Under the pieces are notes generated by a model. It was not told the origin of the DNA. It searched no databases and saw nothing but the letters and a program-made list of their open reading frames with translations. Of a stretch of DNA of 22,262 nt, positions 1 through 20,161 are shown in pieces; position 1 is the first letter of the stretch, and every line of letters begins with the position of its first letter. Source of the DNA: a virus (Duplodnaviria > Heunggongvirae > Uroviricota > Caudoviricetes); IMG/VR virus record IMGVR_UViG_2563366960_000006. One strand, 5' to 3'. The translations under genes and the position numbers were made by a program.

Positions 1-1143
1 CTATGCTGTTTTGATATCTACGATAATCCAGTCTTTACCACGATCATCATTGTATCGGTCGGTCATTTTTCTGGATTTATGGCCTAACAACTTTTGCGTA
101 TCCAGACCCTGTTCCCGATATAACCGTTCTGACAGAGATCGCTGCTCATGAAATGTGGGCGCAGTTCCTTGCTCCCATTTTATGCCACATTTTTCCCGGG
201 CCTTTTTAAAAGCCGTTGTCAGAGTATTCGCAGAAACCTGGTCTCCTCTGTTTGCTTGAGAGGTAGTGTGACGGTAATGGACCAGATATTTACTAACAAC
301 AGCATCCCTGCACTGAGATATAACTTCACGAAGGGTAATATTCAGAGCATCGCATTTCAGGTTAAGCGGAATAGCAAGTTTTGAACCGGTTTTTTCCTGA
401 GTAATGTGCAACATGTCGTCCCATATATCAGAGAATTTCAAATTGCAGATATCGCCTAAACGTTGTCCAGTAACAAGAGCAAGTAGCATGCCGCATTTTA
501 AATAGGGCTGCCGTCTGCTTACGCTGTCAAATATTGCCTGCCATTCGGGCAGTGACAATCTTTGGCGGTTTACTCGATTTCGCGGTTGTTTTGTTGCCTG
601 CGCTGGGTTAAATCCTGGCGGAACATGTCCTGCGTGTTGTGCTTCTTTGAAGACGTCGATCAACACCATTCTCACGACTTGCGCCATCCTGTTATGACCT
701 TCAGCCTTTACAGCATCAATTATTTCGGCAATATCAAGTGCGGTAATATCCTTGAGGTGTTGCATTCCACAATGCTCACGGAAAAGACGAATGGGTTTGC
801 CTTTTTGCCGATAGGAGTTGGGTCTTAGTTCATTATGTTGCAGCCTGTCCTCTTGGATAGAAATATATTTATCAAGCCATTCTGTCACCGTAATGTCTGA
901 GCGCCTGCCTTTCATTCTTTCCAGACGCTCATTGACGCTTAATATTTGTCTGGTACGTTGTTCAGCAATAATGGTATTTGCTTCAGTAGCAACTTGTTTT
1001 GCTTCATTCTCATCAGTTCCTAAGCTATGAAAACGACCGGATAGTGGATGTTTGTATTGCCAATATACCTTTCCGGTTCGCTTATCTAATTTGCAATATA
1101 AATTGGGTATAGAGATTTTGTGAGATCGGGGTCTAGCAGCCAT
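1..1143 (-). CDS. int: Lambda-family tyrosine integrase (380 aa)
   Basis: Full ORF in track; ATG at 1143, stop at 1-3. C-terminal region (HEQRSLSERLYREQG...LLGHKSRKMTDRYNDDRG) resembles the lambda Int catalytic region; overlaps the upstream xis-like gene by 11 nt as in int-xis modules. Sequence differs from lambda Int, so att specificity is probably different. Confidence 0.9.
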   Translation of the reverse strand: MAARPRSHKISIPNLYCKLDKRTGKVYWQYKHPLSGRFHSLGTDENEAKQVATEANTIIAEQRTRQILSVNERLERMKGRRSDITVTEWLDKYISIQEDRLQHNELRPNSYRQKGKPIRLFREHCGMQHLKDITALDIAEIIDAVKAEGHNRMAQVVRMVLIDVFKEAQHAGHVPPGFNPAQATKQPRNRVNRQRLSLPEWQAIFDSVSRRQPYLKCGMLLALVTGQRLGDICNLKFSDIWDDMLHITQEKTGSKLAIPLNLKCDALNITLREVISQCRDAVVSKYLVHYRHTTSQANRGDQVSANTLTTAFKKAREKCGIKWEQGTAPTFHEQRSLSERLYREQGLDTQKLLGHKSRKMTDRYNDDRGKDWIIVDIKTA

Positions 1144-4992: not shown

Positions 4993-5125
4993 TTTTTGGG
5001 ACTCCTGGCTGATTAAGTATGTCGATAAGGCGTTTCCATCCGTCACGTAATTTACGGGTGATTCGTTCAAGTAAAGATTCGGAAGGGCAGCCAGCAACAG
5101 GCCACCCTGCAATGGCATATTGCAT
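4961..5125 (-). CDS. cIII: CIII (FtsH inhibitor stabilising CII), 54 aa
   Basis: Not in the ORF track (under 60 aa). Hand translation from ATG at 5125 (SD AAGGAG) gives [54 protein letters not shown], stop at 4961-4963; overlaps kil by 32 nt as in lambda. Confidence 0.85.
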   Translation of the reverse strand: MQYAIAGWPVAGCPSESLLERITRKLRDGWKRLIDILNQPGVPKNGSNNYGYPD

Positions 5126-5197
5126 GGTGTGCTCCTTATTTATACATAACGAAAAACGCCTCGAGTGAAGCGTAATTGGTATGCGGTAACGCCGCGC

Positions 5198-5566
5198 TCA
5201 GGCGGCCTTGATAGTCATATCATCTGAATCAAATATTCCTGATGTATCGATATCGGTAATTCTTATTCCTTCACTACCATCCATTGGAGGCCATCCTTCC
5301 TGACCATTTCCATCATTCCAGTCGAACTCACACACAACACCATATGCATTTAAGTCGCTTGAAATTGCTATAAGCAGAGCATGTTGCGCCAGCATGATTA
5401 ATACAGCATTTAATACAGAGCCGTGTTTATTGAGTCGGTATTCAGAGTCTGACCAGAAATTATTAATCTGGTGAAGTTTTTCCTCTGTCATTACGTCATG
5501 GTCAATTTCAATTTCTATTGATGCTTTCCAGTCGTAATCAATGATGTATTTTTTGATGTTTGACAT
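5198..5566 (-). CDS. ea10: Ea10-like early protein (122 aa)
   Basis: MSNIKKYIIDYDWKASIEIEIDHDVMTEEKLHQINNFWSDSEYRL... matches my recollection of lambda Ea10; located just distal to cIII as in lambda. Confidence 0.75.
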   Translation of the reverse strand: MSNIKKYIIDYDWKASIEIEIDHDVMTEEKLHQINNFWSDSEYRLNKHGSVLNAVLIMLAQHALLIAISSDLNAYGVVCEFDWNDGNGQEGWPPMDGSEGIRITDIDTSGIFDSDDMTIKAA

Positions 5567-5584
5567 CTATTCATATCCTCATAG

Positions 5585-5612
5585 ATAAAAAATCGCCCTC
5601 ACACTGGAGGGC
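5585..5612 (-). terminator. Intrinsic terminator on the minus strand, between the 156-aa gene and ea10
   Basis: Minus strand: GCCCTC-CAGTGT-GAGGGC (plus 5595-5612) followed by GATTTTTTAT (plus 5585-5594). Confidence 0.45.
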
Positions 5613-5716
5613 AAAGAAGATTTCCAATAATCAGAACAAGTCGGCTCCTGTTTAGTTACGAGCGACATTGCTCCGTGTATTCACTCGTTGGAATGAATAC
5701 ACAGTGCTTATTCGTA

Positions 5717-6187
5717 CTAATAAAACACCCAGTTTTCTGTTTCTTGGTTGTGTCCAAAGTTATATTCAATATCTGGTGTTGATGTATCAATATTCTTCAT
5801 CCCATCAACAAGAGTTGATACAACAGCCAAATCTTGTTTGATTCTCATTAAATGGTATTTCTTCCGGCGCAATAAACTTTCAATGGCAAGTTTCTTCGTT
5901 GGGAATGCAAAAGATCTTTCTGCATTTTTTGCTACTTTCTTAATTGCATATCTATTTCTCTTTTGTTTCCATTCCTGTAACCACTGATTTGGTGCTGGTT
6001 TAAAATTAACAATCCAATGCGCAGGAACCAACCATGCATAATGCTCTGTCTGATGAAAAGCTATATATTGAAGTGCGAATATTTTGATTCCATCTTCTTC
6101 AACTGTCGCCTGGAATCTCCAGAAAACAGGCATTCCATCATGTTCAGTTTCTGATTCAGGAAAAGGTACGCTCCATGATTTTGTCAT
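5717..6187 (-). CDS. Hypothetical protein (156 aa), moron-like cargo at the ral/sieB position
   Basis: ORF with ATG at 6187 and SD GAGGTGA; Trp-rich N-terminal half and a strongly basic central segment (KQKRNRYAIKKVAKNAERSF...LLRRKKYHLMRIKQ). No motif I recognise. Flanked by terminator-like hairpins on both sides. Confidence 0.6.
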   Translation of the reverse strand: MTKSWSVPFPESETEHDGMPVFWRFQATVEEDGIKIFALQYIAFHQTEHYAWLVPAHWIVNFKPAPNQWLQEWKQKRNRYAIKKVAKNAERSFAFPTKKLAIESLLRRKKYHLMRIKQDLAVVSTLVDGMKNIDTSTPDIEYNFGHNQETENWVFY

Positions 6188-6232
6188 ATCTCACCTCAAA
6201 TAATTCAGTACAGTGTTTATTCTGTTGTTTGT

Positions 6233-6261
6233 GCCAAAAATAAAGGCCGATTATGCGGCCT
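6233..6261 (-). terminator. Intrinsic terminator on the minus strand after the 207-aa gene
   Basis: Plus 6244-6261 AGGCCG-ATTATG-CGGCCT; on the minus strand the hairpin is followed by TTTATTTTTGG. The gene's stop codon (6251-6253) lies in the loop. Confidence 0.4.
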
Positions 6262-6874
6262 CGGAAGGAAGTCCAATCATCTTATTCAAATCTTCTACCC
6301 GTAAAGCAGGAAGTGCTGCACTTGCTTTATCTGCTTCTTTTGGTAGCAACTCTTTGCTTTCAGGCCAAACTTCAATAAGTCGCTTAACTGTTGTGACTGA
6401 GTTCAAAGCAGCCCATACATTTGATTCGATATCCTTTTTCTTGGCTTCAAGTTTTTGTTGCAATGCGCAGATTTCATCAAACCTTTTTGTTATTTCGTGT
6501 TCTGCGCTAAACATGCATTTATATTGGGTCGGAGTAGGGAGCAATATATCTTCGCCGTTGCCGTCTTTCCCATATGAAAGCCATCCAACCCTTCTGCCAG
6601 ATACAGTCAGATAAATTGATGCAGAACGAACATCGCATGAGCAAAATGAACATCCCAGTTTTTCAAGTTCTTCACTTATAGCTACTAACTTGGATGATAA
6701 CTGATCCACTTCCTCAGTTTTCTTTTTACCGCCAAACGCAATAACTCTGGCGTTAAGTGCAAGCTGGTTCTTTAACTTTGTTACTTCTTTAAGTTCAGTG
6801 AAAACCCCAGACTTAATTAAAGCGTTACGAGCGATTTCCTCTTTCATTCTCGTAGTTAAGCGGATTGATGACAT
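6251..6874 (-). CDS. Hypothetical protein (207 aa from ATG at 6874), first gene after N
   Basis: Track ORF extends to 6934, but ATG at 6874 has a good SD (GAGAGGAA) and avoids overlap with N. Predicted coiled-coil segments and a Cys cluster (GCSFCSCD). Sits where lambda carries sieB/ral. Confidence 0.6.
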   Translation of the reverse strand: MSSIRLTTRMKEEIARNALIKSGVFTELKEVTKLKNQLALNARVIAFGGKKKTEEVDQLSSKLVAISEELEKLGCSFCSCDVRSASIYLTVSGRRVGWLSYGKDGNGEDILLPTPTQYKCMFSAEHEITKRFDEICALQQKLEAKKKDIESNVWAALNSVTTVKRLIEVWPESKELLPKEADKASAALPALRVEDLNKMIGLPSEAA

Positions 6875-6885
6875 ATTAATTCCTC

Positions 6886-7185
6886 TCAAATAAGTTGTTT
6901 GCTGCCTAATTTTATTTTCTGGCGACCAACACAAGTCACACCCATTTCACTCCGTGGTTTCCGGTAGTAAATACGGTTCTGTTTACGCTCGACTTCTTCT
7001 GCCTTCTTGCAGCGAAGGCTTCCGAGTGATGCTGCTTTATCTGCTCTGACGCAACCAGAGAGCTTTAGCGCAATTTTTCGCGCCAGTCGCTGCTCTTGCA
7101 TTGCCTGTTCACGTTGAGCCTGTCTGCGTGCTCTGCGGCGATTTCTGGCGTTATCGTCAGCCAGATATGTAATGACTACTGTCAT
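6886..7185 (-). CDS. N: N-like transcription antitermination protein (99 aa from ATG at 7185)
   Basis: First gene downstream of pL/nutL; arginine-rich N-terminus (NARNRRRARRQAQREQ); C-terminus ...RIYYRKPRSEMGVTCVGRQKIKLGSKQLI resembles the lambda N C-terminus (...TWYSKPGERGITCSGRQKIKGKSIPLI). N-terminal ARM differs from lambda N. Confidence 0.8.
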   Translation of the reverse strand: MTVVITYLADDNARNRRRARRQAQREQAMQEQRLARKIALKLSGCVRADKAASLGSLRCKKAEEVERKQNRIYYRKPRSEMGVTCVGRQKIKLGSKQLI

Positions 7186-7291: not shown

Positions 7292-7333
7292 TTCCCGCAT
7301 TTCGGCGGGACAATCCCATCAATGTTAAAGAGC
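7292..7333 (-). promoter_or_regulatory. nutL (boxA + boxB) on the minus strand
   Basis: Minus strand carries boxA GCTCTTTAACA (plus 7323-7333) and boxB hairpin TCCCGC-CGAAAT-GCGGGA (plus 7292-7310); the same boxA/boxB pair recurs downstream of cro. Confidence 0.65.
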
Positions 7334-7379: not shown

Positions 7380-7442
7380 AGTATCACCGCTAGTGGTATG
7401 TGTGTCAACACCGCCAGAGATAATTTATCACCGCAGATGGTT
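7380..7442 (-). promoter_or_regulatory. pL promoter with operators OL1-OL2-OL3
   Basis: 17-mers TATCACCGCTAGTGGTA (7382-7398, OL1), CAACACCGCCAGAGATA (7406-7422, OL2), TATCACCGCAGATGGTT (7426-7442, OL3); minus-strand -35 TTGACA (7403-7408) and -10 GATACT (7380-7385) with 17-nt spacing. OL2 and OL3 match lambda; OL1 differs by one base. Confidence 0.85.
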
Positions 7443-7599
7443 ATCTGTATGTTTTTTATATGGATTTATTTTTTTGCAGGGGTGCATTGTTTGGTAGGTG
7501 AGGGATCAGAATTGCACTGTTTAGCAAGTTGTATCTATCAATTTTTCAATAAATACAATTGGTTATGTTGTTATTAGGTGTGGGGATCGAGAGGCAAAG

Positions 7600-8310
7600 A
7601 AAACCCGGCACTGAGGCCGGGTTGTTATTGTGCACAGAAAACCCCCAGCTAGGCTGGGGGTTCCGGAAAGCTTTCAGCTTTGAGCCAGTTATTAAAACCC
7701 CTTTTGATTTGTTAAAACACCTTGCGGTCTGGCAACTGCAAGTGTCAAACAAGAAATCAAAAGGGGGTCCCAATGGGGAACGAAAAGAGCTTAGCGCACA
7801 CCCGATGGAACTGTAAATATCACATAGTATTTGCGCCAAAATACCGAAGACAGGTGTTCTACAGAGAGAAGCGTAGAGCAATAGGCTGTATTTTGAGAAA
7901 GCTGTGTGAGTGGAAAAGTGTACGGATTCTGGAAGCTGAATGCTGTGCAGATCATATCCATATGCTTGTGGAGATCCCGCCCAAAATGAGCGTATCAGGC
8001 TTTATGGGATATCTGAAAGGGAAAAGCAGTCTGATGCCTTACGAGCAGTTTGGTGATTTGAAATTCAAATACAGGAACAGGGAGTTCTGGTGCAGAGGGT
8101 ATTACGTCGATACGGTGGGTAAGAACACGGCGAAGATACAGGATTACATAAAGCACCAGCTTGAAGAGGATAAAATGGGAGAGCAGTTATCGATTCCCTA
8201 TCCGGGCAGCCCGTTTACGGGCCGTAAGTAACGAAGTTGGATGCAAATGTCAGATCGTGTGCGCCTGTTAGGGCGCGGCTGGTAAGAGAGCCTTATAGGC
8301 GCATTTGAAA
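7600..8310 (+). mobile_element. IS200-like insertion sequence (IS200/IS605 family); boundaries approximate
   Basis: Contains tnpA (7773-8231). Upstream are a terminator-like hairpin (7602-7623, then T-rich), a 10-bp stem-loop (7640-7662), and a long-range pairing between 7698-7710 and 7754-7766 that would sequester the tnpA SD (AAGGGGG), all as described for the IS200 left end. Exact termini not determined. Confidence 0.75.
7773..8231 (+). CDS. tnpA: IS200 transposase TnpA (Y1/HUH family, 152 aa)
   Basis: MGNEKSLAHTRWNCKYHIVFAPKYRRQVFYREKRRAIGCILRKLCEWKSVRILEAECCADHIHMLVEIPPKMSVSGFMGYLKGKSSL... matches IS200 TnpA (recall). ATG at 7773; the track ORF begins 51 nt earlier. Confidence 0.92.
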   Translation: MGNEKSLAHTRWNCKYHIVFAPKYRRQVFYREKRRAIGCILRKLCEWKSVRILEAECCADHIHMLVEIPPKMSVSGFMGYLKGKSSLMPYEQFGDLKFKYRNREFWCRGYYVDTVGKNTAKIQDYIKHQLEEDKMGEQLSIPYPGSPFTGRK

Positions 8311-8335: not shown

Positions 8336-8659
8336 TTATTTATGGAAAAACACTTCAAGTATTTTTGGGATTGCTGGTATGAGTTGTGAGGATACGACCG
8401 CACCTACAACCCATAGAATTATCGAAGTTTTCGCGTCGCTTACGTCTGATTTGGTTGCATAATTCGAGCGCATGACAGCCAGGTCGGTTTTCATTTGCTG
8501 AACATCTTTTTCGAGTTCTTTCACTCTTTGAAGCACATCATCACCTCCGCCATTGCCGCCACCATGCCGTGAGTATGCATCATCAGTGGGATAGTGTCCA
8601 ATTGGGCGAGATATGTTTTGATTTGGACGAAGTTGAGTAACCTTGTTATCTAAACTCAT
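8336..8659 (-). CDS. Small tail-anchored membrane protein (107 aa), second gene of a cassette replacing rexAB
   Basis: ATG at 8659. Gly-rich N-terminal region (GGGNGGGDD), predicted coiled coil (VLQRVKELEKDVQQMKTDLAVMRSNYATKSDVSDAK), C-terminal hydrophobic helix (SIILWVVGAVVSSQLIPAIPKILEVFF). Architecture resembles XhlA-type or holin-like small membrane proteins (by recall, not searched). Start overlaps the upstream gene by 14 nt. Confidence 0.65.
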   Translation of the reverse strand: MSLDNKVTQLRPNQNISRPIGHYPTDDAYSRHGGGNGGGDDVLQRVKELEKDVQQMKTDLAVMRSNYATKSDVSDAKTSIILWVVGAVVSSQLIPAIPKILEVFFHK

Positions 8660-9083
8660 CGCGAACTGATCCTGTTATCTTCACGTCAAAAAACGAACTT
8701 TTTACATCAATTACTTCGCCTTTCTCAGGATTAACCAGTGATGCTCTAACTTCGAATATCCCAGGCTTGATAATTTTCACCCTTGGGAAGTTAATTCTCA
8801 TAGAAGTTGATACGATGGTTTCTCCATCGTTGGCTTCTGCTACCGTAAAAAACTTATGGTTGGAGTACAGTTTTGTGTCAATTGGTATCGGTATTTCTTG
8901 AGCATTGAAAACCTCAATGCCTATGGAATATTTTTTTGTAGCCTTAAGGCCGATAAAAAAAGCGCCAAATGACAGATCCACTTCATGGGAGTCTTTATCC
9001 ATTTCATAGATAAGAACTGGAGTTACGGGGTTGCCTTCATCCATCGCAATCGGAATGATATAAGAAATACGTTCTTTAATCAT
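8646..9083 (-). CDS. Hypothetical soluble protein (145 aa), first gene of a cassette replacing rexAB
   Basis: ATG at 9083 lies 7 nt after the cI stop codon (9091-9093), same strand, no intervening terminator, so it should be co-transcribed with cI. No recognisable motif; low-GC composition. Confidence 0.65.
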   Translation of the reverse strand: MIKERISYIIPIAMDEGNPVTPVLIYEMDKDSHEVDLSFGAFFIGLKATKKYSIGIEVFNAQEIPIPIDTKLYSNHKFFTVAEANDGETIVSTSMRINFPRVKIIKPGIFEVRASLVNPEKGEVIDVKSSFFDVKITGSVRDEFR

Positions 9084-16187: not shown

Positions 16188-17270
16188 TTAGAACTGATAA
16201 ACCAGACCTACAGCGACGATGTCGTCGGTATCAATACCAGCTGTTTTGGTAAACTTACTATCGTCAATTAAGTTGATTTTGTAATCAACAAAAGTGGACA
16301 TGTTTTTATTAAAGTAGTAAGTAGCACCGACATCGACATACTTGACTAAGTCTCGGTCACCATGAACACCAAGGTCTTTACCTTTTGACTGAAGGTAAGC
16401 AACAGATGGACGCAGACCGAAGTCAAACTGATATTGTGCTACTGCTTCAAAGTTTTGTGCTTTGTTTGCAATATGGTTATTACCAAAAACGGTCATATTC
16501 TGAGTTTCAGAATATGTGGTAGCCAGATAGATATTGTTCGCATCATATTTCAGGCCTGCAGCCCATACTTCCGCATTTTTGCCGGAGGCATTGAATTTGC
16601 TCTTACCATAGGCGACCTGACCGTCAGTGCGATCTGATTTAGCATAGGTTGCACCCACGCCGAATCCTTCATACTCATAAGTAGTGGAGAAACCGAAACC
16701 ATCACCATTGGCTTCAGTTACGTCAGTGCGGTCATTTTTACCCTGATACTGAGCAGCAAAGTTCAGGCCATCGACCAGACCAAAGAAGTCGTTGTTACGA
16801 TAAGTTGCAACACCAGTAGTGCGACCAGTCATGAACACATCTGTTTGGGTCCAGGTATCACCACCGAATTCTGGCAGAACGTCAGTCCACGCACCGATGT
16901 CGTATGCTACACCGTAGTTACGGCCGTAATCGATTGAGCCGTAATCACCAAATTTCAGGCCTGCAAATGCAAGACGGGTTTTGTCTTTGGAAGAACCTTG
17001 AGATTCAGCACGGTTGCCTTTGAATTCATATTCCCACTGACCGAAACCAGTCAGTTGATCGTTGATTTGGGTTTCACCTTTGAAGCCAAGACGGGCATAA
17101 GTAGTATCACCATCATCTGCATCATTAGAGGAGAAGTAGTGCTTGGCATTAACTTTCCCGTATAGATCCAGCTTGTTACTGTCTTTATTATAAATTTCAG
17201 CTGCCTGAGCAGACATCGCCATCAGTACTGATGCAGCTACAGCAGAAATTGCCACTGTTAATTTTTTCAT
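16188..17270 (-). CDS. nmpC: Phage-borne outer-membrane general porin (OmpC/OmpF/PhoE family; NmpC/Lc-type), 360 aa
   Basis: Signal peptide [23 protein letters not shown] then [17 protein letters not shown]..., porin PEFGGD motif, C-terminal ...VGLVYQF. ATG at 17270 (track ORF extends 60 nt upstream). Located between Q and the lysis cassette, as nmpC is in DLP12. Confidence 0.9.
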
Positions 17271-17696
17271 TGTACGCCCTTTTTTTGAACTATTATTAAA
17301 AAATGATGTCACTGCGCGATAAATATTCATCTAATCAATGTGATTATTTCAAGATGTAAGTTTTAGTTTCTCATTTAATTTGTGAAGTAGATCTCTATTT
17401 TTATCTGAACCTTTTCTATCTAATCCTATTCATGGCTCTTGTCTGAACAAAAATAAATCTATTAGCTAATTTATATTAATGGCACTTATTTATAAGTGCT
17501 CTATAATTCTTTAGCTTAATTTAAACAAACTAAAAATAACATCGGAAATTATTAACTGGTTATTTGTTGAAGTTTTCTTATGCATTTGTGGTGGTGTTTT
17601 GAACACTCGGTGGCATTCTCACAAATATCATTTAGTAGTTTACGTACGTAAAAAATTGGTTATGCTGTTAAGAGTGGTTACTTCGTCACACAGCTT

Positions 17697-19354: not shown

Positions 19355-19834
19355 CTTATTATCCTGCATTGTTAAAAACGGCAGAATCCTATGTGACAAC
19401 AATTAAACGATAGTTAAATGGATTGATGAAAATTAAAACTACACAGGTGGGCTCAGACTATTGGAGGAAGTTGGGGACACTCAGAATCCTGTGGAATGAA
19501 ATAAACCGGTCTATCCGTCCATTACCCTTTTAGCTGCGCTGTATCGTCGCCGTATTCCCGCATTAACCATGACCGTAGCCCGACGGGGAATTCCTTCTGC
19601 GTGAGTGTGCGGGAATAATTAAAAACGATGCACACCGGGTTTTTACCGCGTTAATGATTCGCGGGTTTATCCCGGTGCGATGGTGGAAGAAACAGGAAGC
19701 TGTATTACAGAAAGTGCTACTACTGTATCCCGATGCGATGTATGTAATGTGAGTCAGATAATGGCACAGGATGTGGTGATGTGGCAGTCTGGAACACAGG
19801 ATATATTGTCAGAATAAGACCCGTAGGAATAAAA

Positions 19835-20161
19835 ATGAAAAGACGCCTTTTACTACTTTTTCTGTTATCTGTCCTGGCAGTGGGATGCTCGCAGCAAAAA
19901 GCTGATGAGCCCCGGCAATTAGTGACGGTGTATCCACGATATCCGGAATATGCTGCAGCAAATTATATCAAGGGGCTGGTTGAGGTTAAGTTCGATATTG
20001 GTGCTGATGGGACTGTGACACGGATCGTTTTTCTCCGCTCAGAGCCTCATAATTTGTTTCGTGATGAAGTGGTGAAGGCCATGGCGAAATGGCGATTTGA
20101 AAAGAATCGCCCCTGTCAGGGAGTGAAGAGACAATTTATCTTTACGCCGTCACGTCCTTGA
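19835..20161 (+). CDS. Putative lipoprotein with TonB C-terminal-domain-like region (109 aa)
   Basis: ATG at 19835 with AGGA SD; signal peptide plus lipobox (MKRRLLLLFLLSVLAVGC); mature part YPRYPEYAAANYIKGLVEVKFDIGADGTVTRIVFLRSEPHNLFRDEVVKAMAKWRF fits the TonB C-terminal domain pattern (recall). Confidence 0.55.
   Translation: MKRRLLLLFLLSVLAVGCSQQKADEPRQLVTVYPRYPEYAAANYIKGLVEVKFDIGADGTVTRIVFLRSEPHNLFRDEVVKAMAKWRFEKNRPCQGVKRQFIFTPSRP

Follow-up and report, generated by a model that had tools for sequence, protein, structure and literature searches.

In phage lambda, Ral and SieB are encoded in the interval between N and cIII, and the slot after N classically holds anti-restriction and exclusion genes. 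Both occupy a position equivalent to that of the Nmad5 family gene described here (SieB as seen in a P22-like phage), but neither has a Pfam-level sequence relationship to its product. Ral is far smaller than the Nmad5 protein, and sieB of phage SPN9CC lies on the opposite strand whereas the gene studied here is on the pL strand. Homologues of equal length in HK542, mEp235, HK244 and Kapi1 have the same position between N and cIII and the same junction and terminator. In Dhillonviruses, a single substitution in nmad5 allows escape from Tmn, K216E in SM_A8 and K296E in SM_S22 (Yamashita et al. 2025, PMC11846954). Deletion of the Dhillonvirus gene was viable and left Tmn sensitivity unchanged, the gene could not be cloned and was apparently toxic, and the authors proposed a gain of function or altered sensing rather than loss of an inhibitor (PMC11846954). 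In Pseudomonas phage M6, the Nmad5 gene gp56 lies beside an aGPT-Pplase gene and a thymidylate-synthase-like gene (PMC9476957), and steps of the 5-NedU pathway of this phage were reconstituted from gp51-gp55 components, gp56 never being used (PMC8989533).

The window, by which we mean the whole stretch of 22,262 nucleotides that was analysed (IMG/VR record IMGVR_UViG_2563366960_000006), comes from a lambdoid prophage, of which it makes up the early half. Beyond the integrase it continues with exo, bet, gam, kil and cIII, a DUF2528 gene, a 156-aa PHROG-1636 gene, the 207-aa ORF and N. These are followed by pL/OL, an IS200 copy, two unannotated genes and lambda-like cI, cro and cII, and then by an O-like gene, a DnaB-like helicase gene, nin genes, Q, a porin gene, lysis genes, bor and nu1. 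The integrase and the features around the 207-aa ORF are located as follows.

1..1143, minus strand: integrase, followed by the exo-xis region
7408..7380, minus strand: promoter pL, TTGACA-17-GATACT, from a consensus scan, with lambda-like OL operator repeats just upstream
7333..7323, minus strand: boxA-like GCTCTTTAACA, read from the sequence
7310..7293, minus strand: boxB-like hairpin TCCCGC-CGAAAT-GCGGGA, read from the sequence
6886..7185, minus strand: N antiterminator gene, 99 aa (phrog_271 'anti-termination protein N-like', E 5.4e-35)
6887..6881, minus strand: ribosome-binding site of the Nmad5 gene, GAGAGGA, overlapping the TGA of N
6251..6874, minus strand: Nmad5-family gene, 207 codons, ATG 6874..6872, TAA 6253..6251
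6262..6243, tail to ~6235, minus strand: intrinsic-terminator-like hairpin with T-tract, stem-loop GAGGCCG-CATAAT-CGGCCTT
6206..6255, minus strand: junction element of ~50 nt, CGCATAATCGGCCTTTATTTTTGGCACAAACAACAGAATAAACACTG, starting inside the hairpin (Megablast, 94.6% identity, and alignment)

The N gene also matched Pfam N_peptide, with an E-value of 8e-4 that lies under the gathering score. The segment 7293..7333 (minus strand), which was read from the sequence, we take to be a nutL-like site from general knowledge of lambdoid nut sites. In the consensus scan pL was the sole promoter-like site upstream of the 207-aa ORF on the minus strand, and in HK542 the matching feature carries the annotation 'similar to coliphage lambda PL'. 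The ORF starts 11 nt past the stop codon of N and has a ribosome-binding site that shares nucleotides with this TGA; on the pL transcript N is therefore followed directly by this gene, as the sequence-only reading had placed it. That reading had also given the gene its own terminator hairpin at 6233-6261, which was essentially right. The hairpin (z = -2.2 against shuffled sequences) holds the stop codon of the gene in its loop and is the first terminator-like site downstream of pL, since a scan from 7380 to 6262 found no other on the minus strand. With no terminator-like site between pL and the hairpin and with close translational coupling to N, the protein would be made alongside N before antitermination, the terminator being a predicted one.

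The product of the ORF matches Pfam PF18757 (Nmad5, "nucleotide modification associated domain 5") with an E-value of 1.2e-68 and 231.7 bits (gathering cut-off 27), residues 4-203 of the 207 aligning to positions 1-206 of the 206-position profile. It also matches PHROG 1965 (phrog_1965), a family with no assigned function, at E 2e-80. These profile matches place it in the Nmad5 family as a stand-alone protein. Apart from Nmad5, four coiled-coil matches under the threshold were all that a Pfam scan at E≤1 yielded; neither Ral nor SieB was among them, so that the earlier statement that the protein resembles neither one stands. NCBIfam gave no match for the protein and PADLOC-DB, a library of defence rather than anti-defence proteins, gave nothing at E≤0.1. 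An unspecified 'NMAD' domain appears in a bacterial system in the DefensePredictor paper, and no tie to Nmad5 was established. The gene had been called unknown. It is in fact already catalogued and named, its alleles carrying the RefSeq (PGAP) product name 'Nmad5 family putative nucleotide modification protein'. The search for remote homology and structure that had been proposed for it thus led to a known family, and it revealed no likeness of the model to any solved structure.

The family is large and widely distributed. The profile search recovered 2,683 cluster representatives (50% identity clusters, E≤1e-3), and among the best 150 of these nearly all were stand-alone proteins of about 200 aa. 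Among 5,426 complete E. coli genomes, 211 (~4%) carry alleles more than 90% identical to the gene, the best nucleotide identity there being 97.8%. Alleles with 92-95% amino acid identity are found in HK542 (gp33, YP_007151768), mEp235, HK244, Kapi1, PhiR12, and Stx1a and Stx2a phages. Distant members are encoded by phages of Pseudomonas, Vibrio, Bordetella, Salmonella, Klebsiella, Edwardsiella and one cyanobacterium, and a scan of species-representative genomes gave six loci, all in Enterobacterales or Morganellaceae. Among 63 distinct close alleles dN/dS was ~0.27, indicating purifying selection. Because of this value, the 2,683 homologous cluster representatives and a confident structure model, the ORF is a real, conserved coding gene, and the possibility of a spurious ORF, raised in the sequence-only reading, fails.

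The protein is mildly hydrophilic (GRAVY -0.25, pI 8.5) and consists mostly of long helices, in keeping with its earlier description as hydrophilic. An AlphaFold (AF2) model built on an alignment of 146 diverse sequences (pLDDT 92.5, pTM 0.84) begins with three helices, continues with a small beta insert and a helix of 32 residues, and ends in a small C-terminal lobe; it has no long hydrophobic helix. The lobe comprises T-x-K-[KR]-L-x3-WPE-x2-ELLP, a short low-confidence linker and an LNxxIGLP tail. In a Foldseek search against BFVD (E down to 1e-11, TM 0.74) most of the named significant matches were annotated as Nmad5 or belonged to phages that also scored by sequence (such as eiAU), so the predicted fold is common to other members. 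The modelled fold, a bundle of helices that includes a small beta insert, has no enzyme relatives.

Across the 146 diverse members the conserved positions are R5, K11, K21, K35, R43, K164 and R165, E172 and E175, W170 and several Pro, Gly and Leu positions, with N197 invariant. Columns of H, C, D, S or Y all stay below 60% conservation. The family signature residues, each at least 90% conserved in this set, are all present here: R5, R43, G48, G93, T162, L166, W170-P171-E172, L176, P178, L196-N197 and G201-L202. Since conserved residues of a catalytic type are missing and the predicted fold is not enzyme-like, the protein looks like a binding or adaptor protein and not an enzyme. The GCSFCSCD cysteine cluster, which had been put forward as a feature of the protein, was considered as a metal site and ruled out as allele-specific. 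The motif is found in none of 80 close homologues, which have GCSFYSYD or GCSFYSCD instead. The three-Cys run thus reflects a Y78C change peculiar to this allele on a Y/C-polymorphic background, and no Cys is conserved in the 146 members.

The N-proximal slot was surveyed in 80 loci carrying close Nmad5 alleles. Where those genes were detectable, Nmad5 always followed cI and N, preceded cIII and lay on the pL side. The partner cI proteins ranged from 33 to 100% identity to the cI of the window and were accompanied by several N types. N was the nearest upstream ORF in 53 of the 80 loci, one small extra ORF intervening elsewhere, and at least 13 kinds of gene followed Nmad5 downstream. Because of these many cI/N pairings and downstream partners, Nmad5 is a mosaic accessory gene in lambdoid phages. 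The ~50-nt junction element is common, at about 95% identity, to SPN9CC (P22-like), HK633 and HK542, downstream of differing N-proximal genes. In SPN9CC the order is N-sieB-hypothetical, the same junction/terminator and cIII; in HK633, N and two other small genes precede the same junction. Since the element follows different genes, the slot behaves as a site of exchangeable cargo, with N on one side and the terminator/junction on the other, and on these sequence comparisons Nmad5 is one of its cargoes. The junction, found in lambdoid phages of E. coli and in P22-like phages of Salmonella, is likely a recombination joint for cargo exchange. The earlier view of this location as a place for accessory functions is supported by these data.

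Nmad5 is also dispensable, because it is split by an IS element in Stx2a phages and its deletion from a Dhillonvirus is viable. In the Stx2a phage Stx2_131033 (5961..7957) an IS3-family element, with an orfA of 108 aa and an orfB of 296 aa, splits nmad5 after about codon 36. A two-piece nmad5 match pattern was present in 48 of 48 records of Stx2a-converting phages, one of which was examined closely.

Gene neighbourhoods across the family were counted in 80 diverse viral loci dereplicated to 32, four genes on each side. The gene calls were crude longest-ORF calls, and the loci were gathered by one peptide pattern from one viral collection. The following genes were recorded near Nmad5.

12/32 loci: DNA polymerase A
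11/32 loci: DUF2800 PD-(D/E)XK nuclease, plus DUF3799 in 2
11/32 loci: Enc34/gp2.5-type SSB
6/32 loci: S24 repressor
1/32 loci: ThyX
1/32 loci: dGTP diphosphohydrolase

The recurrent order in these 32 loci was unknown-nuclease-SSB-Nmad5-PolA, and helicase, primase and AAA_24 genes were also found nearby. For the most part Nmad5 lies within replication and recombination modules, either flanked by SSB and DNA polymerase A or directly behind the repressor. An independent contig had the order repressor, 61-aa ORF, Nmad5 and, further on, DUF2800, SSB and Dam. In the window and in its lambdoid relatives, the pL operon that holds Nmad5 also has exo-bet-gam or erf-abc2. From these counts the dominant association is therefore with replication/recombination genes and early operons, and the neighbourhoods of the family point to DNA replication and recombination, not to defence or anti-defence hot spots. 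In 10 of the 32 loci the nuclease-SSB-Nmad5-PolA module is headed by a conserved protein of ~270-300 aa (phrog_6784 / phrog_33976; for example L120, 3269..4072), which had no Pfam match.

The Dhillonvirus proteins of SM_A8 and SM_S22 belong to the same family, share the C-terminal motif and are likewise dispensable. They differ from the window protein in having only ~25% identity to it, a length of 253 aa and a ~45-residue insert in the beta region, and their genes lie on the opposite strand amid head and lysis genes, whereas the gene of the window is in an early operon. The lysine at which SM_A8 and SM_S22 escape Tmn aligns with R165 here, within TTVK-R-LIEVWPE, the most conserved motif of the family. 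This alignment marks the R165 surface as functionally exposed and does not by itself tell how that surface acts. The annotated nmad5 CDS of SM_S22 (PP627283, 2009..3010, 333 aa) has an 80-residue N-terminal extension, overlapping with the scaffold gene, that SM_A8 and LM40P1 lack. This is probably a mis-called start, which would explain the numbering of K296 versus K216. The Dhillonvirus defence triggers KpAvs2/Ksap1 and RAZR/portal involve genes other than nmad5.

We tentatively favour the reading that Nmad5 is a dispensable, non-enzymatic, immediate-early accessory protein that uses its basic C-terminal lobe to bind DNA replication/recombination intermediates or the proteins acting on these. 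Its family membership, placement, mosaicism and lack of enzyme features are shown; its target and effect we infer. The protein is translated from the pL transcript right behind N, upstream of the first terminator-like hairpin, and would be an immediate-early product together with N, before antitermination. It would act non-enzymatically as a binding or adaptor protein on phage DNA replication or recombination intermediates, or on conserved host or phage proteins handling them. Its binding surface may be the conserved basic face formed by R5, K11, K21, K35, R43, K164 and R165, together with the invariant C-terminal T-x-[K]-[KR]-L-x3-WPE-x2-ELLP ... LNxxIGLP lobe. Tmn in Dhillonviruses would respond to this same surface, and the protein would have no role in base modification in this phage. 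Counting against this reading are the members encoded beside base-modification genes (M6 gp56 and SPN3UB gp56), the location of Dhillonvirus nmad5 outside the replication module, the classical occupation of the slot after N by anti-restriction and exclusion genes, and the terminator, which is predicted. In a broader form, which is possible and on balance doubtful, Nmad5 proteins would be widespread non-enzymatic early effectors that dock via the basic T-x-K-[KR]-L...WPE...LNxxIGLP lobe on a conserved component of host DNA replication or repair, or else on the ends of DNA. Lambdoid phages would carry them as immediate-early cargo with N, and Tmn would monitor their docking. If this is true, the family name is a misnomer and the docking site a new phage-host interface.

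A rather unlikely alternative is that immediate-early Nmad5 is an anti-defence effector, neutralising a host restriction or abortive-infection system from the slot that Ral holds in lambda. This would suit a mosaic, dispensable gene with predicted immediate-early placement, carried as variable cargo between N and the common junction/terminator. The Dhillonvirus missense change that escapes Tmn and the toxicity on cloning (PMC11846954) are also in its favour, as is the fact that some relatives adjoin DNA-hypermodification cassettes, themselves anti-restriction devices. However, deletion of nmad5 did not alter sensitivity to Tmn, and the authors prefer a gain of function or altered sensing to the loss of an inhibitor (PMC11846954). 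This single experimental tie to defence, from a homologue of 25% identity, is an indirect one. Furthermore, the family is very large (2,683 clusters) and extends to phages of many hosts (Pseudomonas, Vibrio, Bordetella, cyanobacterial), and in many genomes it keeps a fixed place between SSB and polymerase, an arrangement uncommon among inhibitors of specific defence systems. In the literature we found no homologue with demonstrated anti-defence activity.

We judge it unlikely that Nmad5 serves host takeover or growth inhibition, shutting down host replication or division early in the manner of Kil. The position in the early pL operon near kil and cIII, the conserved basic surface and the apparent toxicity of the Dhillonvirus homologue, which resisted cloning (PMC11846954), would agree with such a role. 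That toxicity, however, amounts to a failed cloning of a 25%-identical, 253-aa homologue, and if the target were the host replisome this explanation would overlap with the binding-protein reading.

It is quite improbable that Nmad5 is a DNA or nucleotide modification enzyme or a subunit of one, as the Pfam and PGAP names would have it. The names have a counterpart in some neighbourhoods. M6 gp56, a full-length Nmad5 (hhalign probability 99.2%) like the protein of the window, and SN1_019 adjoin aGPT-Pplase and a thymidylate-synthase-like/hydroxymethylase-like gene, five genes upstream of DNA polymerase; a 5-hmdU kinase is also among the neighbours in M6-like phages, and SPN3UB gp56 follows a DpdA-like gene. 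In contrast to these thymidine-hypermodification settings, no base-modification gene was found among the ORFs scanned from int to nu1 in the window, and such genes were rare around the 32 diverse loci. The reconstitution of the 5-NedU steps of M6 without gp56 (PMC8989533), the lack of conserved catalytic-type residues and the absence of an enzyme-like fold also speak against an enzyme. The database name seems to be based on a minority of gene neighbourhoods. Association with modification genes is a contextual feature and not a sequence criterion, so family membership stands while the functional label is doubtful.

Superinfection exclusion of the SieB type, exerted from the prophage state, is scarcely credible: it has the positional analogy with sieB of P22-like phages in its favour, but the sole promoter-like site upstream of Nmad5, which is on the pL strand and has none of its own, is repressor-controlled pL, sieB of SPN9CC has the opposite orientation, no SieB match was found in Pfam, and the model has no long hydrophobic helix (GRAVY -0.25).

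New elements of this analysis are the predicted immediate-early placement, the common junction that defines the cargo slot, the replication/recombination bias of the family neighbourhoods, which argues against the name Nmad5, and the mapping of the Tmn-escape residue to R165. The value of the gene lies in its family, with thousands of clusters in many phage types and no demonstrated function. Lambdoid alleles in tractable phages (HK542, mEp235), together with the R165 point, offer a convenient system for studying both Nmad5 function and Tmn sensing.

Known RNAs and the IS200 copy of the window were located as follows.

5080..5138: cIII thermoregulator (Rfam)
7640..7763, plus strand: STnc490 sRNA in IS200 (Rfam, 146 bits)
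7722..8231, plus strand: IS200 tnpA, Y1-type transposase ORF
7602..7623: hairpin in the IS200 copy

The two RNAs were the only Rfam matches, and both lie elsewhere in the window; a structured or known RNA at the Nmad5 region was thus discarded. The IS200 copy (7560-8270), ~150-200 bp upstream of pL/OL, separates the genes of the immunity region from the operators, and the extra ~500-700 bp of this region is missing from related prophages with identical cI (L007, L021). Between cI and pL, at the position of lambda's rexAB and on the cI strand, the overlapping genes 8336..8659 (minus) and 8646..9083 (minus) encode a 107-aa protein with a hydrophobic C-terminus and a 145-aa protein, neither with a Pfam or PADLOC match. 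Identical copies accompany the identical cI in L007 and L021, and HK542, whose cI is 95% identical, has other genes in that interval. The two genes are candidates for lysogen-expressed exclusion or defence genes.

Past the terminator lie 5717..6187 (minus; 156 aa, PHROG 1636) and 5198..5566 (minus; 122 aa, Pfam DUF2528), each followed by its own terminator-like hairpin, at 5614..5593 and 5173..5156, respectively. Their presence or absence is independent of each other among related prophages. Two moron-type genes were also observed in the late region: an OmpC-like porin gene at 16188..17330 (minus; Pfam Porin_1, E 2e-151) between Q and the holin gene, the interval that holds stx in Stx phages, and, after bor, a small lipoprotein-like ORF with a TonB C-terminal domain at 19781..20161 (plus).
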